A stretch of DNA of 64,000 bases, from NCBI GenBank assembly GCA_964552045.1, contig CAZKFF010000007.1, positions 3,949-67,948 of the forward strand, written 5' to 3'. Both the position numbers and the translations under genes were made by a program. The DNA is from an uncultured Candidatus Saccharibacteria bacterium (GTDB taxonomy: Bacteria > Patescibacteriota > Minisyncoccia > Phycocordibacterales > UBA918). Positions 10,588 to 33,266 of the stretch are shown in pieces (the first letter of the stretch is position 1; each line of letters starts with the position of its first letter). The notes under the pieces were generated by a model. It searched no databases. It was not told the DNA's origin and saw only the letters and a list, made by a program, of their open reading frames with translations.

Positions 10588-10702
10588 TCCGTAGCCCGTA
10601 CGTGCCTGCGCCTTTCCATCCATCCTGCTTTTTGTCGCATTCGCAAAAGAGCCCCCATACGGCGGCTCTTTGCATGATCCGACATTGGTTCAGTTCTTCG
10701 GT

Positions 10703-12526: not shown

Positions 12527-12542
12527 GATTTTTTGAGCGCAA

Positions 12543-13226: not shown

Positions 13227-13229
13227 ACG

Positions 13230-13892: not shown

Positions 13893-13944
13893 AGGTGAAA
13901 TATAATCTAAATGTTTAATACTGTGTGTACGAAAGCAGACGCAA

Positions 13945-14364
13945 TTAGTGCAGTTTTGGATTCAATATTCCTGCAGCATACAGAAGACCGATATACGCAT
14001 TGGGTTGCGGAGGACGAAGCTTCTGGAGATACCTGCAGCGTATGAGGGAGCGCGTGATCATGTTCCGGCATGCTGCCGCCAGCGAAAGCGAGAAAATAAG
14101 GATGAAAAGCGGCGCAGTCGGAATGGAAAAGAGGAATTTCTTCTCCGCCATGTGCATCTTATCCGCAAGTGACTCAGACGCCTGTACGGGAACAACGGGA
14201 GCTTCCTTGGCATGTACATGCTTTTCAAACGGCAGCACAGACGCGTGCGCGATGCCATAGTGCGCATGCTTCGCCTGGATCGCATGGAGACCCAAAGAAC
14301 AGATGACGATGATCGCACAGGCGATGGAGAATGCGTTTTTGATCATGTCAGTAGACATACTCAC
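13945..14364 (-). CDS. Small His-rich exported/membrane protein
   Basis: Signal-peptide-like MIKNAFSIACAIIVICSLGLHAIQA, then KHAHYGIAHASVLPFEKHVHAKE, and a C-terminal TM helix. First gene of the co-directional copper locus. Confidence 0.4.
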   Translation of the reverse strand: MSMSTDMIKNAFSIACAIIVICSLGLHAIQAKHAHYGIAHASVLPFEKHVHAKEAPVVPVQASESLADKMHMAEKKFLFSIPTAPLFILIFSLSLAAACRNMITRSLIRCRYLQKLRPPQPNAYIGLLYAAGILNPKLH

Positions 14365-14420
14365 TGTATACCATACCCTTTTCAGTATGTGCTGTAAACC
14401 ATATTTACTCCCGAAAATAC

Positions 14421-14936
14421 GTGAGCATGCGCATGGCGCGTCCTCTTCCGTGCTACAATTTTGGCATGGCAGAAGAACTCAGAGGAGTGACGTGGGAAGC
14501 ATATGAGCACCACCACGTGGAGAAAAAAAGCGACTGGTACTGGGTCGTCGGCATACTCGTCATTGCCTGTGCGCTCGGCGCGATCCTGCTCGGCAATGTC
14601 CTTCTCGGCATCGCTATCTTCACCGGCGGAGCAGTGATGCTTATCCTGGCCGCGCGGGAGCCGAAGATTGTCTCCTATGCAGTCACTCAGCGGGGGTTGC
14701 GTATCGACCAGCAGCTCTTTCCCTACTCGACACTTGAGGCATATCATATTGATGAAGAGAATGTGCTCGGTCCGCAGCTGTTGGTAATGTCCGAAAAAAT
14801 GTTCATGCCGCTTCTGGTGATCCCTGTCCCGGAGGAATACACCGACGACATAGAGGACATTATCGGGGCAAAACTCCCTGAACAACATCTCGAAGAGCCG
14901 TTCGGCCACAAAATGCTTGAATTCATCGGATTCTAA
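14421..14936 (+). CDS. Hypothetical membrane protein
   Basis: Two adjacent TM helices (WYWVVGILVIACALGAILLGNVLLGIAIFTGGAVMLILAA) followed by an acidic soluble domain. Preferred over the overlapping antisense ORF on composition. Confidence 0.45.
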   Translation: MSMRMARPLPCYNFGMAEELRGVTWEAYEHHHVEKKSDWYWVVGILVIACALGAILLGNVLLGIAIFTGGAVMLILAAREPKIVSYAVTQRGLRIDQQLFPYSTLEAYHIDEENVLGPQLLVMSEKMFMPLLVIPVPEEYTDDIEDIIGAKLPEQHLEEPFGHKMLEFIGF

Positions 14937-14973
14937 CGACCGCGTCTGAAGCGCTTCCATTAATATGTTCTTG

Positions 14974-14982
14974 TGGTATTAT
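14974..14982 (+). promoter_or_regulatory. Extended -10 promoter element (TGgTATTAT) upstream of tRNA-Arg(GCG)
   Basis: TGGTATTAT matches the extended -10 consensus TGnTATAAT and ends 8 nt before the tRNA 5' end. Confidence 0.3.
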
Positions 14983-14990
14983 CGCTGCAC

Positions 14991-15062
14991 GCTCTCATAG
15001 TTCAATGGATAAAACTCCGGTTTGCGGTACCGGCACTCCAGGTTCGATTCCTGGTGAGAGCA
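14991..15062 (+). tRNA. tRNA-Arg (anticodon GCG as read)
   Basis: GCTCTCATAGTTCAATGGATAAAACTCCGGTTTGCGGTACCGGCACTCCAGGTTCGATTCCTGGTGAGAGCA. Perfect 5-bp anticodon stem CCGGT/ACCGG. Loop TTGCGGT. Confidence 0.8.
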
Positions 15063-15210
15063 CACAATGAAGACCCTCTGGGTTTTGTTTTGCGCACAAA
15101 CTTCTGCGTGCCTCCAAGAAACAGCAGACCTAACCGGATTTCCCTCTCAAAAATCGCACTCAGCGTGAGACTTCGCTGTGGTACACTAGGGTAAACGCAC
15201 GATCGCATTC

Positions 15211-16734
15211 ATGACACGAAAAAGAATACAGATTCTTATTTTTATTTTTTTGGGTGTGTGTCTGCTTGGACTCGGTGCATATCTGTACACAAACCAGGTA
15301 TCCGAAGCAGGAACCTACAAACTGACCGATCCTGATTCTTCCGTACATGTCGTTACGCTCACCGCAAAGGGCTTCAAACCGGAACGGCTCATTATTCGGA
15401 AGGGCGATCAGGTTATCTTCGAGAGCGCCGAAGACAGACCCTACTGGCCTGCCTCGGATGTGCACCCGACACATGAGGCCTACCCTGAATTCGATGCGAA
15501 GAAACCGATTGTTCCTCCGGAGAACTACGAGTTTGTCTTCGACAAGCCGGGAGTATGGTCGTACCACGACCATATCGCACACACACTTACCGGGGTTATC
15601 TATGTATTGGAAACAGGCAAAGAAAGCATAGCGGCGATCGATTACGCCAAAGCCGACTGTACGACACTTGATGGCAATGAACGCACCATGTGCTGGGATG
15701 AACATATTCGTGAAGTCGCACGTACGCAGGGACTTGATGCCGCTTTTGATTTCTTCATTTCGCTCTATGACGAAGAGGAAGGTGTGGAAAAATCCTGCCA
15801 CGAATGGATACATGCGCTCGGAGAGGCCGCATACGAGATCTATGCCCAAGGCGGAGAGGTCCAACTGCGAGCGGAGACTTCATGGTGCAGCTACGGCTAC
15901 TATCACGGCTTCATCAATGGCCTCATCTGGGACACCGGAAGCCTCGAAAAGGTTATGGACTTTTGCAATACTGCGGTCGCGAAATACGGTGATGCCCTGC
16001 CGCAGATCAAAAGCAATTGTTTCCATGGCACTGGGCACGCTGGAGTAGACTTGTTCTTCGACGATCCGGCGTATTGGGGTGATTTCAATAAAATAGCTAA
16101 GGCGGGATTCAAACAGTGCGATGATCTGTTCGGCGACGATCCGCTCATAAATGAATGCTACGGCGGGGTCATTCATGGCATCAGGTTCAGCATGCGCAAC
16201 AATATACACGGGATGAACTTTGACATTGTGATCAATCAAAAAGACCCGTACTACTACTGCCGTGATCTCGACGAGAAATACCATCGGGCCTGCTATTCCG
16301 ATTTCGCAAGCATGTTCTGGGATGTTTTCAACGGCGATGTGAAACAGGCAGTGGCCTATATCGTCAACGAGCATATTCCAAACGACGCGGTTACTGCCTA
16401 CTCGCTTCTGAAAGTGTCTGCCGCATGGGTAGAACATGACCTTGCCACCGGTGAACACCAAGCAAACGTCGAAGCGTGCCGCACGGTACAGGGTGAGCTC
16501 TTCGCTGAGTGCTTCCTCGGTATCGGTATCGGCTTTGTACAGCACGGCGAGCCGGACAATATGCACGAAAAGGCCTTTGCCTTCTGCCGGAGTGATTACC
16601 TGACGCCGGCAGAACGGACAACCTGTTTTACCCAGATGCCTGATCTGCTTGTCTCCTCCTATTCTCCTGAACGGATCGCACAGGCGTGCAGCACGCTTGC
16701 CCCGTCTGAGCGATACGGCCGTTGCGCACTGTAG
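15211..16734 (+). CDS. Exported two-module protein, family A: Cys-less cupredoxin-like domain plus Cys/His-rich repeat domain
   Basis: N-terminal TM anchor. Domain 1 PYWPASDVHPTHEAYPEFD...WSYHDHIAHTLTGVIYV. Domain 2 with CHEWIHALGE, CSYGYYHGFINGL, CFHGTGHAGVD, CYGGVIHGI and about 20 Cys. Paralog of 24071-25564 and 46361-47806. Confidence 0.7.
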   Translation: MTRKRIQILIFIFLGVCLLGLGAYLYTNQVSEAGTYKLTDPDSSVHVVTLTAKGFKPERLIIRKGDQVIFESAEDRPYWPASDVHPTHEAYPEFDAKKPIVPPENYEFVFDKPGVWSYHDHIAHTLTGVIYVLETGKESIAAIDYAKADCTTLDGNERTMCWDEHIREVARTQGLDAAFDFFISLYDEEEGVEKSCHEWIHALGEAAYEIYAQGGEVQLRAETSWCSYGYYHGFINGLIWDTGSLEKVMDFCNTAVAKYGDALPQIKSNCFHGTGHAGVDLFFDDPAYWGDFNKIAKAGFKQCDDLFGDDPLINECYGGVIHGIRFSMRNNIHGMNFDIVINQKDPYYYCRDLDEKYHRACYSDFASMFWDVFNGDVKQAVAYIVNEHIPNDAVTAYSLLKVSAAWVEHDLATGEHQANVEACRTVQGELFAECFLGIGIGFVQHGEPDNMHEKAFAFCRSDYLTPAERTTCFTQMPDLLVSSYSPERIAQACSTLAPSERYGRCAL

Positions 16735-16841
16735 ACGAGCATAATCCGACATCAGTACTGCTTTTATTCACTGATGCAAAGACACGCGTGCCCAAGCACG
16801 CGTGTCTTTCTGCTGTCTCTCTTGTAAGGTTGTTTGCAGTC

Positions 16842-18021: not shown

Positions 18022-20703
18022 CTACGATTTGTATACTCTCAAATTTTTAAGCAGCGTGCGGCTGTCCTTGTCCAGAGTCTTATACCAAGAGGCTCCCAGT
18101 TTTGTACGCAGTGCAGGCGACAGCTTCGTATAGAACCCGTGTGCCTTCAGCTGATACTGCCGCGTGTAACCGTCGCGTCGGGGTGCATCCTCCATCTCAA
18201 CAGCAATCGTGTCTCCCGGCTGAGTGTGGACGAACGTGTGGTTCTGCTCGGCGAGCTCGCGTGACACTTCCCTGTTCTCGCGCTCGTGATACATGCGCTT
18301 CACTGCAAGCGGGGTAAACGTCACATCCTTGGACTCTACCGGGTCTGCCGTAAAGAGGAACGCTGTGCGCACCTTGTGTTTCTTTGTTGCGCGGATGCGC
18401 ATGGTAAGGAACGCCCCCTGTGCGCGCTTGAGCACTTCTTTTGGTATACGGACCACTTCCTGAGACGCCTGCACATAGCGCGGGAAGAGTGTCTGCAGAT
18501 AGGTGATCTCGCCTCCTGCCTCTGCACTTATTACGAGGGACTTTGATGAGTAGCTGCCCTGAGCATAATACGAGCTCTGGGAGTAATAGGAACTCTGGCT
18601 GTAGTACGAGCTCTGGCTGTAATAACCCGATTGCACATATATTGGCGGATAACTGCCCTGGCTATATATAGGATCGTAACTGCTTTGCGTGTAATACCCG
18701 CTCTGGGTATATCCATACGCGCTTTGCGTGTATGGCGTATCCGCATAGGCAGTCTGCCCTAAGGCGAGACCAGATGCGAAGAGCAAACCCATTGCTGCAG
18801 CCGGTGCATTCTTCAGCAGCGTCTGGGAATGTATGTGAAGCTGTTCAAGGGCTGAGAATGGCACCTGATTACCGAGCGTCCAGTCACGGAAATGAGCATC
18901 GACCAGAAGCCACATATCCTCGGTTGGGATATCCTGTACCGGAATCTTGATGAGAAGCTCATCACCGGTATTGAGGGTGATATCCTTCCCGTCCTGTGTC
19001 GGTCCAAGCTGTGTGTATGCCACAGAGGTCGGCGTAAGTCGCGCAGTACGCGTATCGAAATAGTAAGTGCTCTGGGATGGATGCACCTCTGCTTTTTGTG
19101 TATCAAAAATATAGGTATCTTTGAGATTGCCATCAGTTACGGGGTGATGAGAAGCGGGGGTGTCAATAGCAATAAGAGCAAACGAGTCTATATAACTCTC
19201 TTCTGGCTCAACCTCCTTTATCTGCATGCGTATAAGGCCATTTTCACTGTGCGGCTCGTGTTTGAGGAGGTAGGTATCACCACCGATGCCCTGCGCATAT
19301 GCCTTTCTTCCCTCATGCTCGGTGTCGAAAGCGGTGTTCGGTTTTCCGAACAGGAAGTCATTTTCAAAGACGTATTCGCGGCCGTTCCATACCTTCAGGA
19401 ACGGTGTGGAGGTCGGAGTCGAGTATGAACCCTGCTCGTAATATCCGCTCTGGTTGTATATCGGATCATAGCTCGCTTCGCTGTATGTCGGAGTCGGATC
19501 CTCGTATACCAATTCGTAGTACCCTTCGGCATTCATGGTTACATTCTCCGATTTTTCCCAATGACCAGCGTAGTTGGTGCAGTCAACTTCATAGACCGGA
19601 ACACCACCTTCGGCAATGATCGCCTCATACTGTGCCTGATCCTCTTCGTCCATTCGATTGAAGACTTCAATATCACCGTTTACCAGAGCGAGGGTAGCAT
19701 CACCGAGTTGTAAAGAGTTATCAATAATGATCAATCCGTCATCCCCGCTGTCTGACTCAAGATAAAGATCATCCGCCGCTTGCGTGGCACTATACGAACC
19801 CTGCGCATAGGCATACCCATAGCTTCCCTGCGCATAGGCATAGGAACTCTGCGAATATCCGTAGGTGTAGCTTCCCTGTGCATAGGCATAGGAACTCTGC
19901 GAGTAACCGTATGTATAGCTTCCCTGTGCGTAATAGGAGCTCTGTGAATACCCGTAGGTGTAGCTTCCCTGCGCATAATAGCTACTTTGCGAGTAACCAT
20001 ATGTATAACTACCTTGGCTGTAGTAGGAACTTTGTGAATAATAACTGCCCTGTGAATATCCATAGCCGTAACTTCCCTGCGCATAGTAGGAGCTCTGCGC
20101 GTAGTAGGTGTAGCTTCCCTGCGCGTAATATGAACCCTGCGCATAACCATATGTATAGGAACCCTGGGAGTAGTACGAGCTTTGGCTGTAGTATGAGCTC
20201 TGAGAATAGTAGCTTCCCTGCGCGTAGTAGCTTCCCTGCGCGTAGTAGCTGCCTTGCGAGTAATACGAACCCTGGCTGTAGTAGGAATATGAACCCTGGG
20301 AATAGTAGCTTCCCTGTGCATAATAAGAACCCTGGCTGTAGTAGGAATATGAACCCTGGGAATAGTAGGAACCCTGTGAGTAGTATGAACCTTGGGAATA
20401 GTACGAACCCTGTGAGTAGTATGAACTCTGGGAATAGTAGGAACCCTGTGAGTAGTATGAACCCTGCGAGTAGTATGAACCTTGAGAATAATAGCTGCCT
20501 TGGCTGTAGTACGAACCCTGTGAGTAGTATGAACCCTGGCTGTAGCCGTAGAGCATCAGGAACACGGACTGCAGGATCGTTGAGACGCTTTCGGTGTCCC
20601 CCAAAAGGGTCGAATAGACATACCCAACAGCGAGGAGCAAAAGCTGCAGTTTGTTCCTGGACACATAATCGAACGCACGTGATACGTTCAGTACCGTAAA
20701 CAT
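18022..20703 (-). CDS. Giant exported Tyr/Ser/Gln/Gly-rich low-complexity repeat protein (SYYSQG-type repeats)
   Basis: About 890 aa. N-terminal hydrophobic segment (LQLLLLAVGYVYSTLLG). About 265 aa of (S/A)YY(S/A)QG(S)Y repeats. A 350-aa non-repetitive middle domain. An internal signal-peptide-like stretch AAAMGLLFASGLALGQTAYA. A second 65-aa repeat block. A 155-aa basic C-terminal domain. Internal ATG at 20703 taken as start. Confidence 0.75.
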   Translation of the reverse strand: MFTVLNVSRAFDYVSRNKLQLLLLAVGYVYSTLLGDTESVSTILQSVFLMLYGYSQGSYYSQGSYYSQGSYYSQGSYYSQGSYYSQGSYYSQSSYYSQGSYYSQGSYYSQGSYYSQGSYSYYSQGSYYAQGSYYSQGSYSYYSQGSYYSQGSYYAQGSYYAQGSYYSQSSYYSQSSYYSQGSYTYGYAQGSYYAQGSYTYYAQSSYYAQGSYGYGYSQGSYYSQSSYYSQGSYTYGYSQSSYYAQGSYTYGYSQSSYYAQGSYTYGYSQSSYAYAQGSYTYGYSQSSYAYAQGSYGYAYAQGSYSATQAADDLYLESDSGDDGLIIIDNSLQLGDATLALVNGDIEVFNRMDEEDQAQYEAIIAEGGVPVYEVDCTNYAGHWEKSENVTMNAEGYYELVYEDPTPTYSEASYDPIYNQSGYYEQGSYSTPTSTPFLKVWNGREYVFENDFLFGKPNTAFDTEHEGRKAYAQGIGGDTYLLKHEPHSENGLIRMQIKEVEPEESYIDSFALIAIDTPASHHPVTDGNLKDTYIFDTQKAEVHPSQSTYYFDTRTARLTPTSVAYTQLGPTQDGKDITLNTGDELLIKIPVQDIPTEDMWLLVDAHFRDWTLGNQVPFSALEQLHIHSQTLLKNAPAAAMGLLFASGLALGQTAYADTPYTQSAYGYTQSGYYTQSSYDPIYSQGSYPPIYVQSGYYSQSSYYSQSSYYSQSSYYAQGSYSSKSLVISAEAGGEITYLQTLFPRYVQASQEVVRIPKEVLKRAQGAFLTMRIRATKKHKVRTAFLFTADPVESKDVTFTPLAVKRMYHERENREVSRELAEQNHTFVHTQPGDTIAVEMEDAPRRDGYTRQYQLKAHGFYTKLSPALRTKLGASWYKTLDKDSRTLLKNLRVYKS
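18507..18740 (-). repeat. Coding tandem repeat block 2 (degenerate 18-nt units encoding YSQxSY)
   Basis: Recurrent (a/g)ctctgg(g/c)(a/t)gta(a/g)ta(g/c)ga units seen directly in the sequence, within the giant ORF. Confidence 0.7.
19746..20541 (-). repeat. Coding tandem repeat block 1 (about 45 degenerate 15-18-nt units encoding SYYSQG / SYTYGY)
   Basis: Long run of near-identical units, e.g. tagtaggaaccctgtgagtagtatgaaccctg...; all three forward and reverse frames are open here, giving spurious overlapping ORFs. Confidence 0.8.
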
Positions 20704-20807
20704 ATGTATGATTATATATTCATTGGCTCTTCCGCTTGGTGCAAGGGTGTTGACAAGTTTGTGGGAGTGCGCTGCATGTCCGAAAAACACGGTGCGCCGC
20801 ATCAGCG

Positions 20808-21884
20808 CTAGAGCGCGGCAATCTCAAAGCAATAGGCCTTATGTTCCTCATTATCAAACCACGAACAGAACGGATCGAAGGAGACCGAATGGTCATGCAT
20901 CTGTGTTTTGAAGAAACTGTCATGGAATGAACGGATATATGTCCTGGTCAGTTCGTCCGAGAATGACCGGACAATAGGCAGCGGAGTTACGTCTTCGCCT
21001 TTTCCAAGCATAAAGTCTGCAGCAGCAGTTGCTACGCTTTCTACACAGCCTTTCTGCACGGTCGAAGCGATAGCCGGCGCGATACACAGCGCAAGTGCCT
21101 CCTCGATCTCACTTTCCTGCGCTGTTGTGCTCAGACCCAAGCCATTGAGCTCCTTCGCGCAATATCCCTGCAGTTCTTCTGCCAATGAGCTGCAGAAAGA
21201 AAGGAGGTCTCCAGCACTGCTTCCTGCCTTGTGTTGTTGGTCTGCGTGCTCGCTGAATACTCCCCGATAACAGCTTGCGTGAGTAATTGTATCGTCATAG
21301 GTAAGCAGATCGCACTGCTTGAGCGCTTCGAGCGGATCGCGCGTATTTTCCATGAACGAGTGCCCAGCGCCGTGATAGCAGCCCTGATAGTACGGATCCA
21401 GAGGCATGGCAAGCTTGCAGAACTCATAGAGCTTTTCAACGTTCTGTGGGTACGGCTCATTGGCAAGCTGGCCTTCCACCCCATGCATGAAGCCGCTTCC
21501 GCAGAAATCAAGATTCTCTTTGGAAAGAAAATCATGCACTTGTCCGTAATTCTCGCCATAGCCGCCATAGTGTCCGATCACATGAGCGAGCGAATGGCAG
21601 TCGAACATATCGATCTGGCCCTCGACCAGCGCCTGGGTGACCTGATCAATCATTCCATTTATCCCATCATGCTTGAAGAGCACATCGATCTTTTTTTCAA
21701 AATAGCGCTGATATTCAAGATTGCGGAGCTGACTCAGATCGCGTTGCGCCTCTTCGTACGCCGGATCAGACCGCCAGCCCTGTGGCGCGAAGGTCAACAA
21801 CAAAGCCCCGCACAGCACGAGCGCTGCAGTCCCTCCCAGAAAAAGTAATGATATGGTTTTTCTCTGCATGCTCCTGAACATCAC
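20808..21884 (-). CDS. Exported Cys/His-rich repeat-domain protein, family B (paralog 1)
   Basis: TM anchor, then motif triad CHSLAHVIGH / CGSGFMHGVEG / CYHGAGHSFME and about 14 Cys. Module B only. Confidence 0.7.
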   Translation of the reverse strand: MMFRSMQRKTISLLFLGGTAALVLCGALLLTFAPQGWRSDPAYEEAQRDLSQLRNLEYQRYFEKKIDVLFKHDGINGMIDQVTQALVEGQIDMFDCHSLAHVIGHYGGYGENYGQVHDFLSKENLDFCGSGFMHGVEGQLANEPYPQNVEKLYEFCKLAMPLDPYYQGCYHGAGHSFMENTRDPLEALKQCDLLTYDDTITHASCYRGVFSEHADQQHKAGSSAGDLLSFCSSLAEELQGYCAKELNGLGLSTTAQESEIEEALALCIAPAIASTVQKGCVESVATAAADFMLGKGEDVTPLPIVRSFSDELTRTYIRSFHDSFFKTQMHDHSVSFDPFCSWFDNEEHKAYCFEIAAL

Positions 21885-21891
21885 GTGCGTG

Positions 21892-22293
21892 TTATGAACC
21901 GGTTACGGTTATGGTTCCCGTCTTGTTTGCGCGGATGTGGTCGTGATACTTCCATACGCCTACCTTGTCGAATTTGAATGACCACTCATCGCCGGGCGCT
22001 ATAGGAGTCAGCGGATCGAACTCAGGATAGACGCCATGCGTAGGATGCAGATCAGAAGCCGGCCAGTGGAATTCCCCGGACTCATTCACCCAGGTGACCA
22101 CGTCTCCCTGATGTATGGTCACTTCCTTCGGCTCATATCCTGATTCAGTTCGGGTTATGACAACCGCAGGCTCCCCTAGGTTTTGCACTACTGGAGCAAC
22201 TTCGGCGTCCCGATTCTGGAGTAGCAGATAGAGCGCTCCTCCGGCGAGAACAGCAGCAATAATAAGTGCAGCGATAATGAGCTTTTTGTCCAT
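21892..22293 (-). CDS. Membrane-anchored Cys-less cupredoxin-like domain protein, family C (paralog 1)
   Basis: TM anchor plus a single domain VTIHQGDVVTWVNESGEFHWPASDLHPTHGVYPEFDPLTPIAPGDEWSFKFDKVGVWKYHDHIRANKTGTITV. Confidence 0.7.
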   Translation of the reverse strand: MDKKLIIAALIIAAVLAGGALYLLLQNRDAEVAPVVQNLGEPAVVITRTESGYEPKEVTIHQGDVVTWVNESGEFHWPASDLHPTHGVYPEFDPLTPIAPGDEWSFKFDKVGVWKYHDHIRANKTGTITVTGS

Positions 22294-22296
22294 ATG

Positions 22297-22821
22297 TTAT
22301 ATGTTCTTATTTTTTCGGGGAATAAAAAGTGCCACAGCGATGCCAATCATGAGACCCGAGAGGCCAAACAACGCATAGAGTATCCTCGGGTCGACGCCGC
22401 TTTTCTCCTCTAGTGGCGGCAATATCTCGATCGGAAATTCTGTTGCCACTACAGCTTCACCTTCTTTTTGGAAGCGTGCAGTAAGTACGTAACTTCCCTG
22501 CTCGGGAAACACGAAAGTGAATCCGGTTGCGCCGAACACCGGCTTGCTGATGCCACCTGCAAAGAATATTTTCTTATCCTTGGTCAGCGTCACCCAGACA
22601 TCCTCGAATACCTCTCCTTCCACAGCATCAGTATTCTCGGGATAGATGGCAAAATCGAACCGCACTGATTCGTTCTCCGCGATGAACTCATCGTATCCGA
22701 TGTCGATCTTGTATCCGTCCTTGATCTCTTCATGCGAAAAGCTCGAGCCGTGTGCGCCTGCAAAAAAAGGGACGCTAACGGCGAGAACACTGACGAACAA
22801 ACTGATAATTATATGCTTCAT
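22297..22821 (-). CDS. Hypothetical exported protein with C-terminal TM anchor and basic tail
   Basis: Signal peptide MKHIIISLFVSVLAVSVPFFAGAHG, soluble domain, and C-terminal ILYALFGLSGLMIGIAVALFIPRKNKNI (hydrophobic segment plus basic tail, sorting-signal-like). Embedded in the paralog array. Confidence 0.5.
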   Translation of the reverse strand: MKHIIISLFVSVLAVSVPFFAGAHGSSFSHEEIKDGYKIDIGYDEFIAENESVRFDFAIYPENTDAVEGEVFEDVWVTLTKDKKIFFAGGISKPVFGATGFTFVFPEQGSYVLTARFQKEGEAVVATEFPIEILPPLEEKSGVDPRILYALFGLSGLMIGIAVALFIPRKNKNI

Positions 22822-22839
22822 ATCGGGATTATAGCACTG

Positions 22840-24060
22840 TTAATGTCCTGCACGGCACGTCTGTCCCCATGCTGTCGGCAATGTGGAACACAGTTCCTCA
22901 AATGCGGGGGAATTAGGATGGAAGTTGAATGAAGCAACCCGCGCAAGGAAGCTGTAACATTCATCCTGTGCCGCTTTTTCCTGCGCCCGGCTGCACATAT
23001 CCACCGCCGCGCTGACCAGACCCGGGTCTTCTTCAGGGAAGGCATTCGCACTGCGCGCGAAACACGTGCCCATATATTCGCTTGGCAGGCCGTTGCAGGT
23101 TGCGGCCATCTTGTCTGCATCGCCGAGGTTGTGCCGTCCATTTATCGTGAATGCGGACACGAAGCACAGCGACCGATCTTGGTTTTCGCTCAGAGCCGAA
23201 CAGTAATTGATGACACCCTCGCTTGTATAGATATCATTGCCGAACAGCGGCCAGGCTTCCCGCCAGCAGGCGCCGTATTGTTGATCGGTCGCGCTGTTCT
23301 CCGTACAGAATGTCTCAAGAGTTTCGCGGGTCGGCGCACCGTCAGGAAGCATATCCACCAGAGCAAAATCTTCTGGTTCGAGCGGCTGGAAAAGCTGCAT
23401 ATATACGCCTTCAGTGCACAGCTTGCGATAGTCGCGGCCGTCTGCTTTCAGGCCGACCACCTCGCATCCTTCAAGCGACTGCTGCACGTCAGCGAGCGTC
23501 ATATGGATGAGCACATGCCCTATCCCGTGGTAGCAGATCGCTTTGGTGAGGTCGGTAGGATTCCAGCCTTCGCGTTCCTCGCAGGCGATGGAAAGGTCTC
23601 CAAGCGCATACTCGAACTCTTCGTCGCTTAAATCTTCATCGTTAAAACGGGCGACCAACGCTCCATGCGCATAGCCGTTGGAGCACAGACCGTCGGTCGG
23701 CCCTTTAGCGACCACGTCAAGCCATTTGTCTGGATCAAGCGATACTTCATAGTTCCCGAGCTCATGCGCGAGCACATGGCAGTACAGATATTCCGGATCA
23801 TCGCGGCGTATTTGCCGCACCACATCGAATATTCTCTCGGTGGGCATCTCACTGACGAGTTTCGGCACCTCGGTCTCATAGCACGTCGGGCGGTATGGTG
23901 CATCTGCGCACTTCTCCACCATCATGTGCGCATACGCTTCAATACTCTGCGACGACTGTGTGTGTCCGGTGCTCTTGAAGTAGTTATAGCTGAAGACCCC
24001 GGCTGCGATGAGAACTGCGAGGACTATTGCACTGATGATTAATTTATGAGTGTATGCCAT
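22840..24060 (-). CDS. Exported Cys/His-rich repeat-domain protein, family B (paralog 2)
   Basis: TM anchor. CHVLAHELGN / CSNGYAHGALV / CYHGIGHVLIHM. Internal ATG (MAYTHK...) chosen to avoid overlap with the upstream gene. Confidence 0.65.
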   Translation of the reverse strand: MAYTHKLIISAIVLAVLIAAGVFSYNYFKSTGHTQSSQSIEAYAHMMVEKCADAPYRPTCYETEVPKLVSEMPTERIFDVVRQIRRDDPEYLYCHVLAHELGNYEVSLDPDKWLDVVAKGPTDGLCSNGYAHGALVARFNDEDLSDEEFEYALGDLSIACEEREGWNPTDLTKAICYHGIGHVLIHMTLADVQQSLEGCEVVGLKADGRDYRKLCTEGVYMQLFQPLEPEDFALVDMLPDGAPTRETLETFCTENSATDQQYGACWREAWPLFGNDIYTSEGVINYCSALSENQDRSLCFVSAFTINGRHNLGDADKMAATCNGLPSEYMGTCFARSANAFPEEDPGLVSAAVDMCSRAQEKAAQDECYSFLARVASFNFHPNSPAFEELCSTLPTAWGQTCRAGH

Positions 24061-24070
24061 ATATGCCTGG

Positions 24071-25564
24071 TTATAGTAAACAATACTTATTTCTGTATTC
24101 TGCTGCAACCTGGTCGCAGATCATTTGTGTAGTCTCCTGATCGTAGCGCGAACCCATCCGCGGCAGCGTGTAGCTGTAGCAGCTGTCGCGCTCTTCTGGG
24201 GTAAGCTCAGGCAGTTCGCAGAAAGCAAGATTCTGGATGTACTCAATGCCCGGCTCCCCGTACTTGATGTGTCCCCCTGAAAGCCCCTCAATGCACGGCA
24301 GGTGGTCCTCCTGCGGGAATGACCGGCAGAGTGCTATGCCCGTCTGCGCATAGTCAGGCTTCTCGCCATACACGCGGATGTACTCGAACATGAGGCCGAG
24401 CGTGACCATGTCGTTGATGGTGTGGCCGTCGATTGCTGTCTCATTGTTGTCGATCATGTGTTCGTTTATGTACGCAGCAGCCTTTTTGAAGTCGTCATCG
24501 GTGAGGTCGAGCACCACCGGGATCATATTGCTGTAGCATGCTTCACGCCGGGCGAGCGTCTGCTTATTGCAGAATTCAAACGGATGCTGCCGCAGCTCCG
24601 TTATTTGGTACTTCGGGTCCATTGCAAGTATCTCGATGGCGTTGAACACCCCCGTTTCGCAGAGATACGTCTCTAGCTCATTCTGCGCCAAAAGGCCGCA
24701 CACCTTGAAACCGGGTTCCATCATGGCATTGGGATTCCCCCATGTGGTCGGATCACTGCCGTCAATGGCTCCATGCCCCGTCCCATGGAAGCAGGCAGTT
24801 GCCGCTGCTGATGCTTTGCCGCGGAGTTTCTCGTCAACCACCCTGCAGAATTCGCGCGCCTCATCAATGTCGCCGGTAGTGAGGAGAAGCTGCTCCATGA
24901 AGCCGTGATAAAAACCATATCCGCATAGTGCTGTGGCAGGGGTGAGGTCGAAATTACGATGTTCGGCATAGAGCTCATAGGCTTTTTCTCCGATGAGGTG
25001 ACTGTACCCATGGCAATCGTTGAGGAACAACGGCTCGGTCTCCGAGAGGTAAAGCACCTGGTTGAGTGCTGCCTCAACGCCATCGCGGTCAAGCGTATCA
25101 AGCATCATCTTTTCCCAGCACTGAACCGTCCGTTCCTGCGTGCAATCGACAACAACATGCGTGCCGTCTTGTCGTTCAACGAGTATCTCCCCCTCGAAAT
25201 TCGAAGCGATATGGTCGTGGTAGAGGTAGGTGCCCGGTTTATCGAACGTGAATTCCCACGTCTCATCTGCAGGTACCGGCTGCTTCGGATCGAATGCGGG
25301 AAATGCGGTATGCGTTGGATGCACGTTTGATGCCGGCCAGAACGGCCTGTTCACTGTAGCCCTGAAGACCACCGTATCCCCTGCCTGAATGGTGAGCTTC
25401 TGCGGATGGAAGCCGTCGTCTTTGAGGACCACCTCGTAGCGGGTCTTATTAAAGAGATCCGGGATTGGGATCAGGTCAAAGAAGAGCGCTGCAGCAGCGC
25501 CAGCTGTGACAATGCCCACGAGCGTCCCCGCTATCCATATTCTTTTGTATTTCAAAAACTGCAT
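24071..25564 (-). CDS. Exported two-module protein, family A (paralog 2): cupredoxin-like plus Cys/His repeat domain
   Basis: TM anchor. RPFWPASNVHPTHTAFPAFD...YLYHDHIASNFEGEILV, then CHGYSHLIGE / CGYGFYHGFMEQL / CFHGTGHGAIDG. Confidence 0.7.
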   Translation of the reverse strand: MQFLKYKRIWIAGTLVGIVTAGAAAALFFDLIPIPDLFNKTRYEVVLKDDGFHPQKLTIQAGDTVVFRATVNRPFWPASNVHPTHTAFPAFDPKQPVPADETWEFTFDKPGTYLYHDHIASNFEGEILVERQDGTHVVVDCTQERTVQCWEKMMLDTLDRDGVEAALNQVLYLSETEPLFLNDCHGYSHLIGEKAYELYAEHRNFDLTPATALCGYGFYHGFMEQLLLTTGDIDEAREFCRVVDEKLRGKASAAATACFHGTGHGAIDGSDPTTWGNPNAMMEPGFKVCGLLAQNELETYLCETGVFNAIEILAMDPKYQITELRQHPFEFCNKQTLARREACYSNMIPVVLDLTDDDFKKAAAYINEHMIDNNETAIDGHTINDMVTLGLMFEYIRVYGEKPDYAQTGIALCRSFPQEDHLPCIEGLSGGHIKYGEPGIEYIQNLAFCELPELTPEERDSCYSYTLPRMGSRYDQETTQMICDQVAAEYRNKYCLL

Positions 25565-25977
25565 TATTCGGTGACGATGATAGTGCCCTGCAGGGTTGAG
25601 TTCAGATGGTCATGGTAATCCCACTGCCCAACGCGAGTGAACTGGAACGACCAGGTCTGGTCCTGCGGGACCGGCTGGAGCGGATCAAACGCACGGTACT
25701 GCGAATGGGTCGGATGCTGGTCGGAGGCAGGCCAGAATGGGTATGCACGCACAGAACTCCATTCCACCACATCCCCTTTCTTGATGGTCAGCTCTTTGGG
25801 CTCAAAACCAGAGTCGTACAAGACCACGGAATGATGGGCTCCTTCGGGCATGGTCTCTTCCGCAGTTGCCCCTTGTTGCGACATAAGCAGCAAAGCCGCA
25901 GCAGCCGCACATACGGCACAGGCGAGCACTGCGGCAATGATACTGATTCTTCTGTTCATGTTTAATCCGATATGCAT
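25564..25977 (-). CDS. Membrane-anchored Cys-less cupredoxin-like domain protein, family C (paralog 2)
   Basis: TM anchor plus YPFWPASDQHPTHSQYRAFDPLQPVPQDQTWSFQFTRVGQWDYHDHLNSTLQGTIIV. The stop abuts or overlaps the start of the family A gene upstream (shared coordinate 25564). Confidence 0.7.
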   Translation of the reverse strand: MHIGLNMNRRISIIAAVLACAVCAAAAALLLMSQQGATAEETMPEGAHHSVVLYDSGFEPKELTIKKGDVVEWSSVRAYPFWPASDQHPTHSQYRAFDPLQPVPQDQTWSFQFTRVGQWDYHDHLNSTLQGTIIVTE

Positions 25978-25986
25978 GGTTCGCCT

Positions 25987-27075
25987 TTACACATCGCTGA
26001 AGATGCTTTCGCACAGCTGCGTATCTTCCTGTTCTGTGAACTCACCGCAGAACGATTGCCAGTCGCGTCCGGTGCCACTTATGAGATACTGTTTCATTTC
26101 AGTACCTGCGCCGATGATATACGCCCGGCGGAGTTCGTCGCTTAAGCCCAATATGTGCTGCGGCACGATGATCGTGTGCTTGGCTGCAAGCTCATGCTGC
26201 GTACCGACCGCAGACACGCTACGGATGCACGCTTCTTCGAGCTCAGCATCATACTCTTCGTTCGAACACGCAATCAGCTTCTTTTCGATGTCTTCAGGCG
26301 TCGACGCTTCGCTTACTCCCAGACCGCTGAACTCAAACACGCACTGAATGCGGTAACGATCGCCGAACTTCGAACAATATTCAAGCGGGGTCTTCTCATC
26401 CATAGTAAGCGGCGGGCCGCCCGTGTAGACGATCCCCGTACCGCCGTCGGTGCCACCCACGAGGTTGGTCAGCTCAGCAAAGACAGCGTTGTAGCACGGA
26501 GTTACGTCCTCAACAGTGTGCGTTTCATTGATCAGGTCATCGCACATCTTAAGCGAGGCGTCGACGTCGAGCGACTCGTTCATAAAAGCATGTCCAGCTC
26601 CGTGGTAACAGGCAGCGTCAGGATTCTTCCGCTTGATGGCATCGCACATGCGGTACAGATTGTTCTTATAGTCACCGCCGCTTAATGCGACCTGTGCTTC
26701 CGCCCCGTGGCGGTACCCAAGTTCGCAGAAATGCGTATCATGTGAGACGACCTTATCGTAATCCTCGCCATAATACACCACTGCCTCATGACCCGTCATG
26801 TGGGAGAGCACATGACAGTTGTAGATACCGTACTTGTTGTGCGTAAAGGCATATTCATTGATATCAATGGCCCCCTGCACCCCCCACTTGTTGATGATGT
26901 CAGGCAACGTATCGCGTATGGTCACAAAGACCTCTTCACCCTCGCCCATCCCTGCCACAACTGCTGCGACGTCAAGTTTTTCAACGTCAGGCTTCAGCTG
27001 CAGATACGTGCCTGCTGTAAGCAAGAGAACGATGATGATGCCATACATCGCATAGACCGGCTTCATATTCTTCAT
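25987..27075 (-). CDS. Exported Cys/His-rich repeat-domain protein, family B (paralog 3)
   Basis: TM anchor. CHVLSHMTGH / CELGYRHGAEA / CYHGAGHAFMNE. ATG at 27075 forms an ATGA start/stop overlap with the upstream paralog. Confidence 0.7.
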   Translation of the reverse strand: MKNMKPVYAMYGIIIVLLLTAGTYLQLKPDVEKLDVAAVVAGMGEGEEVFVTIRDTLPDIINKWGVQGAIDINEYAFTHNKYGIYNCHVLSHMTGHEAVVYYGEDYDKVVSHDTHFCELGYRHGAEAQVALSGGDYKNNLYRMCDAIKRKNPDAACYHGAGHAFMNESLDVDASLKMCDDLINETHTVEDVTPCYNAVFAELTNLVGGTDGGTGIVYTGGPPLTMDEKTPLEYCSKFGDRYRIQCVFEFSGLGVSEASTPEDIEKKLIACSNEEYDAELEEACIRSVSAVGTQHELAAKHTIIVPQHILGLSDELRRAYIIGAGTEMKQYLISGTGRDWQSFCGEFTEQEDTQLCESIFSDV

Positions 27076-28073
27076 TGCAATTTTTGAAAACATTGTGCTT
27101 TATATGGTTCTTGTAATACGTCGCACAGTTGTGCCGCCAAAACATCTCCCCCCTCTTCAGCCCGCACCAGCCATGTCGCTCCTTCGTGGCAGAGCCCCTG
27201 TGAAGCGCCATTTGGCATCAGGGCGCACCATGCAATGATCTGGTCAACATCGAATTTCGCATCAGCGGCGATGTAATTGCCGGTGCCATTGTAACACGCT
27301 TGATATTCAGCACTGTTGCTCGGCAGCTTCGCGCACAGCGCTCCTATGCGTGCATAATCCTTCCCGACCACTGATTGCCACCATTGGACCTGTTCAAAAT
27401 AACAAGACGCCTGGAAACGCTGCGGAAGGACATTGCACGGCGCATAGAGATCGTCTCCGGCCTCGCGGACAAAATCAGTGCTGTCGTCCATGGTGTGAAA
27501 GTTGTACTCCATGAAGACGCCACTTGAGCAGCCGCCGGTTGGAAGTGTTGAGATGGTCTCGCACAGTTCAAGCGCCTGCAGGAGATTATCGTAATCGGTA
27601 TAGACCAAAAGACCGTGTCCGATGCCGTGCTGGCATGGTAAATCCTTGTCACCGAACTTGTCCTTGCATGCTTCGCTGAAGCGCGGCAACGTGCCGATCC
27701 CTTCGGCGTTCACCGCGACGCCGAAGAAACTGTGGTAACAGCCGAATTCAAATGAACTGTCGCAGTAGCGCAGTCCGCTTATGCCCTCCGCCTCATAGAG
27801 AGCCTCACCGAATGCATGGGCTTGGGAGTGCGTCGCAAGCGAGCTGCGCGGCGCTTCTTCGAGAAAATCCGCATATGCCTTTTCCGGACCGATCGCTTCT
27901 ATGGTTGCCTTCCAGTGTTCCTTCAGTTCACGAAGCTCGCTTGCTACCGCAGGAAACGTGTCGCCGAGGTTATCTTCTTTTTGTTTTTCGCCCAAAAAAT
28001 ACCAGAGAATGCCGCCGCACAAAAGCGCAGCGATGAGAACTCCTGGAATGATGAATCGGGCAGTACGCAGCAT
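27072..28073 (-). CDS. Exported Cys/His-rich repeat-domain protein, family B (paralog 4, more divergent)
   Basis: TM anchor. AHAFGEALYEAEG / CYHSFFGVAVNAEG / CQHGIGHGLLVY. Confidence 0.65.
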   Translation of the reverse strand: MLRTARFIIPGVLIAALLCGGILWYFLGEKQKEDNLGDTFPAVASELRELKEHWKATIEAIGPEKAYADFLEEAPRSSLATHSQAHAFGEALYEAEGISGLRYCDSSFEFGCYHSFFGVAVNAEGIGTLPRFSEACKDKFGDKDLPCQHGIGHGLLVYTDYDNLLQALELCETISTLPTGGCSSGVFMEYNFHTMDDSTDFVREAGDDLYAPCNVLPQRFQASCYFEQVQWWQSVVGKDYARIGALCAKLPSNSAEYQACYNGTGNYIAADAKFDVDQIIAWCALMPNGASQGLCHEGATWLVRAEEGGDVLAAQLCDVLQEPYKAQCFQKLQ

Positions 28074-28076
28074 GGT

Positions 28077-29333
28077 TTATTGCAAGAGTACGTCGGTGCA
28101 CTCCTGTTTGTATGCTTCCGGCACCGCATTGCAGATTGACTGCCGCGCGCTGAAATCAGGCCGGTAATACGTTGTAATCTCAAAGAGATGGTCAAAGCAC
28201 TCTTGTGCAACACTGTCATCAAGAAGCGAGCAGTACCGGATGGAAACCTCGGGGTCGTTCTCTCCTCCCCAATACAACGAGTCGAGTATCTCAATGAGGC
28301 ACGCAACCTGCGCTTCTTCCTTATGCGCGAGCATACACCAGCTTGCAGCAAGTTCGAGCTTGTCATTCGGCGTATCTTCTATGCGGCGGATATCACGATC
28401 CTGCGCAAGCACAATGAACTCCTTGCCGAGACCTGCGTAGCATGCCTCACGCTGCACATCGTTCTGCACCTCGTCACAGAATGCAAAGCTCTTCGGATAA
28501 ATGTCAGGGGTAGGATTACCATTGACCGCTCCTGCTGCATCAAAGATGTACGGTGTGATATATGAATAGCAGAGCACTTTCGCCTCCTCTGGCATATAGT
28601 CCTCCTTGCACAGTCGAAGCGGATCGTCCGGCGTCAGGTATTTGTCGCGCTTCTGCGCCCAGATCTCCGGATCATGCACTCCCTGATGCATTTCCATGAC
28701 AATGCCGCCCATGCACTGGTATGCCTCCTCGTTGTGATACTGTGCGGTTCCGACCTTTTTACACAGCTCAATGGCATCGGGTATTTCGTACTCAGTATAG
28801 GCGAGCACGCCGTGGCCGAAACCGTGGAAGCACATGGTATACGCCCCCGGGCCGCCTGGAGCCTTCTTGCACACCTCATTCACCTTGTCGAAGACGGCGA
28901 GACCGTCAGCTAAAAGCGCGCCGACGACAATGGAGTGGGAGCATGCATTGCGGAAATCATGCGTGCAGTACTGCATGCCCTCGAGATTTTCCTGCTTATA
29001 AAGCTCGTCGCCAACCGCATGTCCGAGAAGATGGAGGTCCATATTAGGCGGAAGAATGGCGCGTTTGAGTACCTCAAAAGAGTATACTCCGCCTTTTTCC
29101 TGCGCGAGATCGACAAAAAATGCCCGAATGGAAGCAAAATCGTCGTCTACGGTTTCGAGTTTCTGCAGATCCTCTGCGAAAGCGGCTTCACTGAACTGCA
29201 CTGCCTGCTTCGGACCAGCATCAAGATTACTATTGATCGTGCCGGCATACAGTAGATACCCGAGTACGGATACAGCACATATCCCAAGGATGCCCAATGC
29301 GATGGCTTTATATGGAAGGTTTATTTGTCTCAT
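28077..29333 (-). CDS. Exported Cys/His-rich repeat-domain protein, family B (paralog 5), first gene of the array
   Basis: TM anchor. LHLLGHAVGDELY / CSHSIVVGALL / CFHGFGHGVLAY. Confidence 0.65.
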   Translation of the reverse strand: MRQINLPYKAIALGILGICAVSVLGYLLYAGTINSNLDAGPKQAVQFSEAAFAEDLQKLETVDDDFASIRAFFVDLAQEKGGVYSFEVLKRAILPPNMDLHLLGHAVGDELYKQENLEGMQYCTHDFRNACSHSIVVGALLADGLAVFDKVNEVCKKAPGGPGAYTMCFHGFGHGVLAYTEYEIPDAIELCKKVGTAQYHNEEAYQCMGGIVMEMHQGVHDPEIWAQKRDKYLTPDDPLRLCKEDYMPEEAKVLCYSYITPYIFDAAGAVNGNPTPDIYPKSFAFCDEVQNDVQREACYAGLGKEFIVLAQDRDIRRIEDTPNDKLELAASWCMLAHKEEAQVACLIEILDSLYWGGENDPEVSIRYCSLLDDSVAQECFDHLFEITTYYRPDFSARQSICNAVPEAYKQECTDVLLQ

Positions 29334-31757: not shown

Positions 31758-33266
31758 CTATTTCCTCTTAAGAAGGCACTTGTTGAGTCTTATATAATTG
31801 TTTTCTATGTACTGACGACTTCGTGGTGAGAGGAGGTCCCTATGTTCTCCTGGATCAGCAATGATAAATCTGACTTTTTTATCCTCAAGTGCGCGAATGA
31901 GATCGTCACCATACACATCATACCCGGCAATTGCTCTTGCGGTTTCCCCGTGCAGCAGATTATAAGACCAATAATATTGCACGTCTTCGTTAAAAACGTA
32001 CCCGCCACATACATTCCAAAAGAAAAAAACTGGTTCTGAACGTTGCGTATGCTTAAGCATAAAACGTGATAAATCCTTCTGCTCCTGCAAGAGTACCGGC
32101 TCCCGATCTATACTGTTCAATCTTTCAACAAGATAATCCTCCATTGGTACAAAGAAAAGTAAGAGTAGGATTGGAGAAAATACTAATAGTTCACCGGTGT
32201 TTATTTTCAGGAGCCGAAATACCCTAGTAGCGCCATAGGCACAGAGTATCGCTAAAAGCGGGAGAAAGACCAAAAATGATTGTGAATACATACCGAGGAG
32301 TATTGTAGAGGTGGAACCAGCAGTAACCCACAAGAATAAAACGTGTTCAGCACAACGTTTAGTTGCCACTTCCCACAGAAGAAGCAAGAAACTCAGGCAG
32401 GTTAGAATGAGCAACGGCAGCTGATGTGTGTATATCTCCTTCCAATAGAAAGGGAGCATTCCAAGCTCTTTATCCATACCCAGCAGTACCCAGTTGTAGT
32501 AGTAATTACTGCGCAGATACGCTTCGCCGCCGCCAAGCGCATAGAAACAAAGAACGATGAATCCAAGCACGCTCACAATGCCTAAACAGATTGCAACCAA
32601 CTTAAAGAGGTTAGCTCGAAATTGAGCCTTTTGGAGGATAAGATTGAGGAAGAGAAAAAGAAACACAAAAGCAATCCCCAATATTGCTTTTGTGTTTGCA
32701 GCAATAGCCAGACCGAAGAGTATGCCCGATACATAAAATGCACGCGGCGTATCTTTACGGAGATGAGCGATAATGACATACAAGCCTAAAAGCCAGAAAA
32801 TATTTTGAAGCTGATCAGGTCTGATCTCAATCCCGTTGAGATGGAAATAATAAATGCTTGAAAGTATCGCAACAGAAAGAAAGGAGAGAAGATGAGATCT
32901 GAATAGCAGTTGCGCCAACTGGAAAGTAATATAGGCGAGAATCACCATATAAAAAAAACTAACGCAACGCAGGAACGTGAATGTAGAGAAATCAGCATCG
33001 AGATCAAAGACGGAAAACAGTACGTAGTTAACTACAGGATAAACGACACCATGATGTTCCCAAAAATCTGCATAGATGAGCTTGGCATTGTGGAACATAT
33101 TCCAGACGATATGTGTATGTTGGAATTCATCTGGATAGAATGGCTTGTTAAAAATAAACAAGAGTGAAAGACTGAAATTATAAGCAGTTACTAACGATAA
33201 AAAACCCCACAAGAAATAGCGGAGCAGTGGATTTTTACTTTTCTTTTTGGGAGAGTCTTCGGACAT
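31758..33266 (-). CDS. GT-C fold membrane glycosyltransferase (ArnT/PMT-like, family 39/83)
   Basis: About 12 TM helices, N-terminal loop with acidic motif (YPDEFQHTH), 502 aa. AT-rich relative to surroundings. Confidence 0.65.
   Translation of the reverse strand: MSEDSPKKKSKNPLLRYFLWGFLSLVTAYNFSLSLLFIFNKPFYPDEFQHTHIVWNMFHNAKLIYADFWEHHGVVYPVVNYVLFSVFDLDADFSTFTFLRCVSFFYMVILAYITFQLAQLLFRSHLLSFLSVAILSSIYYFHLNGIEIRPDQLQNIFWLLGLYVIIAHLRKDTPRAFYVSGILFGLAIAANTKAILGIAFVFLFLFLNLILQKAQFRANLFKLVAICLGIVSVLGFIVLCFYALGGGEAYLRSNYYYNWVLLGMDKELGMLPFYWKEIYTHQLPLLILTCLSFLLLLWEVATKRCAEHVLFLWVTAGSTSTILLGMYSQSFLVFLPLLAILCAYGATRVFRLLKINTGELLVFSPILLLLFFVPMEDYLVERLNSIDREPVLLQEQKDLSRFMLKHTQRSEPVFFFWNVCGGYVFNEDVQYYWSYNLLHGETARAIAGYDVYGDDLIRALEDKKVRFIIADPGEHRDLLSPRSRQYIENNYIRLNKCLLKRK

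Follow-up and report, generated by a model that had tools for sequence, protein, structure and literature searches.

Eight proteins encoded on a 64-kb stretch of DNA from an uncultured Candidatus Saccharibacteria bacterium (contig CAZKFF010000007.1; the whole stretch is called the window) share a Cys-rich helical domain with five invariant His residues, termed here the five-His domain. The five-His domain represents a genuine, large, and uncharacterized family and is probably a new metal-site scaffold. Six of the eight copies lay between positions 20808 and 29333 of the window, together with three other genes (21892–22293, 22297–22821, and 25564–25977). The preferred reading, given about an even chance, is that these proteins form an extracytoplasmic metal-binding module as part of a surface system with many paralogs. 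Among curated families, solved structures, and publications, no description of the five-His domain was found.

Five-His Domains in the Window

A profile hidden Markov model (HMM) of the eight domains matched exactly eight open reading frames (ORFs) in the six-frame translation of the window (E-values 1e-82 to 6e-131) and found no ninth copy. The pattern C.HG.GH occurred eight times in the six frames, as compared with a mean of 0.02 in 50 codon shuffles. The window paralogs were 17–33% identical to one another, and the most divergent pairs were still significant in plain BLASTP (1e-5 and 6e-7). The eight-copy observation is far above chance. A prior sequence-only reading had described these ORFs as paralogs sharing three ordered motifs, and the HMM count, the BLASTP pairs, and the motif frequency bear that description out.

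Alignment of the eight copies with MAFFT placed all three motifs in register and revealed 17 invariant ectodomain columns, comprised of five His, three adjoining Gly, and nine Cys. In the numbering of the 15211 ORF (ORFs are named by their lower coordinate), the invariant His and Gly were H197, H201, G204, H232, H272, G273, G275, and H276, and the invariant Cys were C226, C252, C270, C303, C316, C350, C361, C459, and C472. Each protein contained 12–18 Cys in total, with an even count in every ectodomain; this corresponds to 9–15 Cys beyond the motifs, rather than the 12–20 first reported. The Cys of the C-H-x3-H motif, which had been listed as conserved, was missing from the 27072 and 28077 copies. 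These two copies had been called weaker; both kept all five His. Each of the eight proteins had a single N-terminal hydrophobic helix (an anchor or a signal) and no later hydrophobic segment, a topology that fits the suggested export.

Domain Architecture and Conservation

Conservation and Cys-pairing statistics were taken from 319 domain instances, among which overall identity falls below 20%. The five His were 99.7–100% conserved and six Gly (family-alignment columns G62, G87, G91, G129, G131, and G166) were 96–99.7% conserved. No sixth His, Asp, or Glu column reached 80% conservation in the family alignment. Cys pairs 110–126, 149–163, and 198–209 were jointly present in every instance, and pair 306–318 in 317 of the 319. 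Cys pairs 54–84 and 272–283 were lost or gained jointly (both in 279 instances, neither in 31, and one in nine). Where C54 was absent, a compensating local C-x7-C usually appeared (‘CPxDFxxGCxHGF’; CDSSFEFGC and CTHDFRNAC in the window). Domains with the inter-helix disulfide were designated class I, and those with the local one class II.

Because Cys were gained and lost in pairs, the alignment points to disulfides and not metal ligands, in line with the sequence-only reading, which had supposed that the further Cys were disulfides. The number of predicted disulfides per protein was six to nine; those predicted for the 24071 ORF are C184–C214, C240–C258, C289–C302, C332–C343, C413–C424, C449–C462, and C483–C495. 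With the Cys assigned a structural role, the His are left as the sole invariant polar residues.

The paired Cys were 8–18 residues apart and bracketed helix-turn-helix units. Self-comparison of the family profile with HHalign yielded off-diagonal alignments (probability 65–89%, E 2e-6 to 6e-5) that superposed CGYGFYHGF on CyHGiGHGa, C-tGVFNAi, and CIEGLSGGH. Since the motifs superpose off the diagonal, the profile identifies all three as a single site, located where the second helix begins, that recurs in consecutive disulfide-stapled hairpin repeats. This iteration had gone unnoticed earlier, as had the coupling of the domain to a Cys-less cupredoxin-like domain.

The domain consisted of approximately eight helix-hairpin repeats. 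Repeats 1–3 were distinctive, with His at +1/+5, +6, and +2/+6 after the staple and Gly around them. The His sat 1–6 residues past the disulfide-anchored helix starts, forming i/i+4 pairs on helices 1 and 3, and the predicted C54–C84 disulfide ties helix 1 to helix 2. AlphaFold2 models were built with family alignments. For the 24071 ORF the model (pLDDT 92.4) contained a transmembrane (TM) helix, a beta-sandwich at residues 42–130, and approximately 20 helices, and for residues 38–358 of the 20808 ORF it was all-alpha (pLDDT 95.5, pTM 0.90).

Family Size and Locus Conservation

A profile run exhaustively against 1.84 billion cluster representatives recovered 6,923 proteins at E ≤ 1e-3, 5,552 at E ≤ 1e-10, and 1,344 at E ≤ 1e-30. 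Counted in clusters at 50% identity, the family has at least 5,552 members at E ≤ 1e-10, nearly all of them from Patescibacteria. The matches included polypeptides with two to seven tandem copies of the domain. The family profile found thousands of relatives and matched no known domain; a homolog search seeded with the eight-paralog alignment retrieved nearly only relatives of the first sequence in that alignment. Homologs with names were called ‘hypothetical’, ‘cupredoxin domain-containing’, or (JGI) ‘plastocyanin’.

A scan of species-representative genomes gave 71 loci, which are biased towards arrays containing the long, cupredoxin-bearing form since an alignment of closer relatives was used. 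Nearly all loci belonged to the Patescibacteria, or candidate phyla radiation (CPR): Kaiser-, Nomura-, Yanofsky-, Sung-, Taylor-, Doudna-, Adler-, Colwell-, and Daviesbacteria, and Microgenomates. The few loci labeled as other taxa had CPR-like gene orders. Loci contained a median of five family genes and a maximum of 14 within approximately 17 kb, and 67 of 72 loci contained at least two. An 831-kb contig (locus L074) encoded a 3,580-aa protein at 6001–16743 (+) with seven class II five-His domains and, after them, a GH3 N-terminal domain plus LRV/HEAT repeats; genes for a PIG-L deacetylase and an FG-GAP protein adjoined this giant gene.

Family members from the 72 loci fell into clear-cut subfamilies, each with its ortholog among the window genes. 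Subfamily C (28077 ORF) was present in 42 of the 72 loci with orthologs 41–51% identical across lineages. Subfamilies D (27072 ORF) and G (22840 ORF) were present in 38 and 61 loci, respectively, each with orthologs approximately 30–40% identical. Orthologs of these three and of the long cupredoxin-bearing type were found in Kaiser-, Nomura-, Yanofsky-, Taylor-, and Daviesbacteria and in other lineages. The genes recurred in the order C-D-(E)-long-G, the adjacency of long to G being observed 53 times, D to long 26 times, and C to D 20 times.

Orthology to distant genomes rules out recent tandem duplication. What had been taken for a strong lineage-specific expansion is instead a set of ancient subfamilies, with orthologs 30–50% identical in similar order across distant CPR lineages. 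A phage or mobile origin was also rejected: megablast of 20–30 kb against phages found nothing, and the neighbors were housekeeping genes. On the strength of these comparisons the operon of differentiated paralogs is ancient and conserved, from which we infer cooperation among the paralogs, possibly as a hetero-oligomer, rather than redundancy.

Cupredoxin-Like Partner Domain

The commonest association of the five-His domain was with a cupredoxin-like domain, either fused or adjacent. This domain was fused N-terminally in three window proteins and in most homologs of approximately 490 aa, and was found at either end of larger proteins. Among the long forms, 98 of 108 carried HPxH and 96 of 108 carried H[DE]H. 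A neighbor cluster that includes the stand-alone cupredoxin-like proteins was present in 41 loci, and 34 of its 61 members carried the window His motif. In the window, the stand-alone protein at 25564–25977 contained the motifs WPASDQHPTH ... FDP ... YHDH, with no Cys in the domain, and that at 21892–22293 contained HWPASDLHPTH ... FDP ... YHDH. Residues invariant in the domain were WPAS..HP.H, FD, and H-[D]-H.

Type-1 cupredoxins such as amicyanin and plastocyanin share the Greek-key beta-sandwich fold of this partner domain. Their His-Cys-His-Met ligand set was missing from it: in alignment with amicyanin the Cys92 position was Asp and the Met98 position was Leu, and the domain was Cys-free. 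A blue copper site is ruled out. The domains kept four His and one Asp, a ligand set that by analogy would resemble that of the engineered C112D/M121L azurin (‘type zero/type 2’), in which Cys is replaced by Asp. From the sequences, the JGI name ‘plastocyanin’ for the fused versions looks like an over-annotation. Recent CPR papers infer electron transport from ‘plastocyanin’ annotations (PMC12931201, PMC5581439); that annotation is not justified for this family.

Operon Organization

The window operon contained ten genes running from 29333 to 18022, all on the minus strand. Adjacent genes were separated or overlapped by no more than about 22–48 nt, the exact limit hinging on which start is taken for the 22840 ORF. 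Gene 1 (28077–29333; 418 aa; subfamily C; HMM E 2e-105) encoded an N-terminal membrane anchor and a class II five-His domain, in which the predicted local disulfide of CTHDFRNAC replaces the inter-helix one. Anchor and five-His domain also made up gene 2 (27072–28073; 333 aa; subfamily D; class II with CDSSFEFGC; HMM E about 1e-81) and gene 3 (25987–27093; 368 aa; subfamily E; class I; HMM E 1.5e-105). Gene 4 (25564–25977; 137 aa) was the first membrane-anchored stand-alone cupredoxin-like gene (Pfam PF13473, E 1.1e-5). The long form, gene 5 (24071–25564; 497 aa), contained an anchor helix at residues 7–31, a cupredoxin-like domain at approximately 42–130, and a five-His domain at approximately 140–497, with the invariant His at H185, H189, H220, H260, and H264.

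Gene 6 (22840–24108; subfamily G; HMM E 4.5e-110) encoded an anchor and a five-His domain with 18 Cys; a TTG start gives 422 aa, and the ATG at 24060 gives 406 aa. Gene 7 (22297–22821; 174 aa) encoded a signal peptide, an Ig-like beta domain, a C-terminal TM helix, and a basic tail. Gene 8 (21892–22293; 133 aa) was the second membrane-anchored stand-alone cupredoxin-like gene (PF13473, E 3e-4). Gene 9 (20808–21884; 358 aa; subfamily H; HMM E 1e-102), with 29 homologs, encoded an anchor and a five-His domain with the invariant His at H97, H101, H134, H171, and H175. Gene 10 (18022–20802; 926 aa), 5 nt downstream of gene 9, encoded tens of ‘SYYSQG’-type Tyr-rich repeats. Two long-form paralogs with cupredoxin-like and five-His domains were dispersed on the plus strand, at 15211–16734 (507 aa; HMM E 6e-131) and 46361–47806 (481 aa; HMM E 1.4e-116).

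Neighboring Genes

The gene 7 protein was a conserved neighbor in 20 loci, and its alignment contained invariant H24, D40, D56, and W76. The predicted signal peptide ends in Ala immediately before H24, making this invariant His the predicted first mature residue. Library matches were weak (PKD, Filamin, and YtkA-like). The N-terminal His recalls histidine-brace copper proteins, and by this analogy the protein is a possible metal binder.

The Tyr-rich protein of gene 10 was mostly ‘SYYSQG/SYYAQG’ repeats with a non-repetitive central part. Of the 74 sequences examined, the window among them, 20 had proteins with at least five YY dipeptides within approximately 8 kb of arrays. From this association, the 926-aa protein is possibly part of the system. 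Tandem secreted proteins of approximately 185 aa with the strongly conserved motif ‘KGSGTFVIDHPLDPxNKLLYHSFVESPD’ were observed in eight loci (L019, L035, L037, L050, L057, L059, L066, and L071); their genes (e.g., L057, 13834–14950) were often beside YY-repeat proteins and five-His arrays.

The window also contained a set of copper genes at 10703–13892 on the minus strand, namely: a three-domain multicopper oxidase (10703–12526); a canonical type-1 cupredoxin (12543–13226) with FHDW...YYCSVMNHRQKGM; and a secreted His-rich protein (13230–13892) that shares a ‘G[VI]HIM.DG..M’ segment with the linker of the type-1 cupredoxin.

DsbA-like or redoxin genes adjoined arrays in other genomes, the DsbA-like genes in approximately seven loci. 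These neighboring thiol-disulfide oxidoreductases fit oxidative folding of a Cys-rich family. Two such genes beside arrays were located at 5933–7660 (+) in L001, encoding a 575-aa AhpC-TSA/Redoxin/Thioredoxin_10 protein, and at 15540–16265 (−) in L021. CPR are enriched in the MdbA/VKOR disulfide system, and membrane or surface proteins that lack annotation account for most of the families enriched in CPR (Méheust et al., PMC6744442). With six to nine predicted disulfides in each protein and 5–14 genes per genome, the five-His family would therefore be a major MdbA/VKOR client.

TPR proteins and PMT_2 glycosyltransferases were also recurrent neighbors. In the window, a PMT_2-type glycosyltransferase gene (31758–33266, −) lay in a low-GC stretch (0.43), and PMT_2 genes were near arrays in eight other loci. 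A low-GC island at 42205–45424 (−; 0.42–0.44 as compared with approximately 0.53), probably horizontally acquired, encoded an 867-aa N6_Mtase/Eco57I/MmeI-type restriction-modification enzyme and a DUF2726/REase-like protein, and was adjoined by an HTH-SocA/Panacea antitoxin-like gene (41433–42170). Type IV pilus genes typical of CPR were found at 7325–9602 (−) and 53255–54991 (+), including PilM, a weak PilO-like match, and a PilB-type T2SSE ATPase.

Proposed Mechanism and Alternative Explanations

Under the metal-binding reading, each protein would be held on the outer face of the membrane by its one N-terminal helix. The ectodomain would be an open alpha-solenoid of approximately eight hairpins, in which the staple joins the end of helix A (‘..FC’) to the start of helix B (‘C-x2-G..’). 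On three consecutive B-type helices, residues after the staple would have become His: H-x3-H on one, a single His on the next, and H-x3-H on the last. Gly flank these His, and the middle helix has Gly at the positions matching the His of the outer helices; the His of the middle helix would sit at the same depth. The five His would then form a rigid, pre-organized site for one or two metal ions, as suggested by their register, namely the i/i+4 pairs, the middle His, the placement of the Gly, and the disulfide between helices 1 and 2. The paralogs would act as a set with the Cys-less cupredoxin-like domains and the N-terminal-His Ig-like protein. Copper is the best guess for the metal, rated below metal binding in general; it is favored by analogy because of the cupredoxin fusion, the N-terminal-His neighbor, and the local copper genes.

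Several observations weigh against this reading. A regular solenoid puts helices 1 and 3 approximately 18–20 Å apart, so the five His may not share one ion. The cupredoxin-like partner, without canonical copper ligands, might bind nothing. In the neighbor analysis, the multicopper oxidase neighborhood did not emerge as conserved in other loci, and the operon contained no copper transporter or chaperone. Neither the profile search of PDB sequences nor Foldseek found a metalloprotein similar in sequence or fold. Fusions to GH3, alpha/beta-hydrolase, and FG-GAP modules fit a generic surface scaffold equally well.

Such a scaffold, in which the domain is a purely structural or adhesive module (serving episymbiotic contact as a rigid stalk or as a surface for interactions) and the His and Gly supply a hydrogen-bond network or structural zinc with no redox or catalytic role, is unlikely. 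It would account for a fold resembling solely generic protein-binding solenoids (HEAT, ARM, importins, and designed repeats) and for the giant proteins with up to seven copies fused to FG-GAP, GH3, and LRV/HEAT modules; the window has type IV pilus genes, and many CPR-enriched families are surface proteins (PMC6744442). Conservation of five His at 99.7% or above in paralogs less than 20% identical is, however, unusual for packing residues. Adhesins usually diversify, whereas the orthologous subfamilies here keep 30–50% identity across phylum-level lineages, and the near-obligatory link to a His-rich cupredoxin-like domain would go unexplained. The fusions to a GH3 N-terminal domain (P0168) and to Abhydrolase_2/DLH (P0237), along with the several paralogs per genome, could instead point to an extracytoplasmic enzyme, a hydrolase or another kind, that works on envelope polymers of the host or of the cell itself, with a (metallo)catalytic His cluster and paralogs for different substrates. 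This is improbable: these fusions are rare beside those to cupredoxins, the His have no conserved acidic or nucleophile residue alongside them, and fold searches found no similarity to a hydrolase fold.

Two further explanations give the His a ligand role. A binuclear copper oxidase set, tyrosinase-like in function with another fold, might hydroxylate or cross-link the adjacent ‘SYYSQG’ proteins into an adhesive or protective surface matrix, with the Cys-less cupredoxins and the N-terminal-His protein delivering copper or electrons. The H-x3-H / H / H-x3-H arrangement on three adjacent helices, the Tyr-rich repeat protein that ends the window operon, YY-repeat proteins near arrays in 20 of 74 sequences, the copper gene context at 10.7–13.9 kb, and the N-terminal-His protein kept in 20 loci all speak for it. 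We nevertheless doubt it strongly, as there are five His and not six, no similarity to type-3 copper proteins was found, and approximately 73% of loci had no YY-repeat neighbor within the sequence examined. CPR bacteria are auxotrophic episymbionts, and the invariant His are exposed on helices, which would suit capture of haem or another tetrapyrrole scavenged from the host through His ligation. This is highly improbable, as two His suffice for haem, leaving five invariant His and the Gly unexplained, as well as the cupredoxin link; moreover, no similarity to known haemophores was found and the operon contained no haem transporter.

The metal-binding reading can be extended to a CPR-wide extracytoplasmic copper machine, comprised of a multi-His (possibly binuclear) center on a solenoid, ‘Cys-to-Asp’ cupredoxins, and a histidine-brace-like Ig protein. 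The surface-assembled paralogs would oxidize or cross-link Tyr-rich proteins, or exchange electrons with the host or O2. We regard this extension as unlikely; if true, it would mean an unrecognized redox or surface-chemistry capability for supposedly fermentative ultra-small bacteria.

Significance

CPR/Patescibacteria account for much of bacterial diversity; their genomes measure approximately 1 Mb, and their surface biology is mostly uncharacterized. The five-His family contributes 5–14 genes per genome in a conserved operon and, at 50% identity, forms at least 5,500 clusters; it has no entry in Pfam, NCBIfam, or the PDB. Were the site to bind copper or some other metal, it would define a new metal-site scaffold, correct the widespread ‘plastocyanin’ annotation used to infer CPR electron-transport chains, and identify a major client of the CPR-enriched disulfide-forming machinery. 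Should the domain be purely structural, the family is still a major part of the CPR cell surface that has gone unannotated.

Comparison With Known Systems

The helical domain of the eight window proteins matched no Pfam-A or NCBIfam model at E ≤ 1. The family profile found nothing credible among PDB sequences, and Foldseek returned nothing at E ≤ 0.001, with query-normalized TM-scores of at most 0.35. The sequence-only reading had likewise been unable to match a known fold. The nearest fold likenesses were generic protein-binding solenoids, and no tyrosinase/hemocyanin, LanC, M75, or other metalloprotein fold was among the fold matches.

Type-3 copper proteins (tyrosinase, catechol oxidase, and hemocyanin), to which the motifs had earlier been likened, resemble the five-His domain in having H-x3-H on an alpha-helix, more helix-borne His, and an extracytoplasmic copper context. 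They have six conserved His, three for each copper (CuA and CuB), in a four-helix bundle, whereas the five-His domain has five on a predicted open solenoid. The candidate was rejected on the His count and on the lack of a profile match, a fold match, or a four-helix bundle. The repeated G-x-x-G / C-H-G-like motifs at helix starts prompted comparison with the LanC-like (alpha/alpha)7 toroid. In LanC-like proteins the alpha/alpha barrel is closed and carries a Cys-Cys-His zinc site. The five-His domain has neither feature; its fold matches were open solenoids, no LANC_like match was found, and its Cys pair as disulfides, which rules the toroid out. EfeO/FtrB-type proteins join a Cup domain to an all-alpha metal-binding domain, a C-terminal M75 with HxxE in EfeO. 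An M75/imelysin identity was rejected: there was no Peptidase_M75 match and no such fold, EfeO was matched solely through its Cup domain, and the window operon contained no EfeU/EfeB or FtrC partners.

Helicobacter HcpB/HcpC and Sel1-like proteins are secreted alpha/alpha hairpin repeats, stapled by a disulfide between the two helices and stacked as an open solenoid. The likeness lies in the disulfide-bracketed hairpins, supported here by Cys spacing, Cys pairing, and the AlphaFold2 helices, the disulfides themselves being predicted. Hcp Cys spacing is shorter than the 8–18 residues of the five-His family, and HcpB/HcpC are not known to have the invariant His cluster, cupredoxin partner, or membrane anchor of the five-His family. 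Sel1/Hcp membership was rejected as none of the eight proteins matched PF08238 at E ≤ 1.

The HEAT/ARM-type alpha-solenoid class is defined by stacked antiparallel helix pairs in an open superhelix, a feature that the modeled five-His domain shares; HEAT, ARM, TPR, or similar repeat profiles had no match in the eight window proteins. Within this class, deoxyhypusine hydroxylase is a HEAT-repeat di-iron enzyme whose His-ligated metal center is built from equivalent positions of successive repeats. Its four His-Glu motifs are missing from the five-His domain, where conserved Gly come directly after the third and fourth His and the residues after the remaining invariant His are variable and non-acidic in the eight window copies. 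By analogy, deoxyhypusine hydroxylase offers a precedent for the working mode proposed for the five-His domain.

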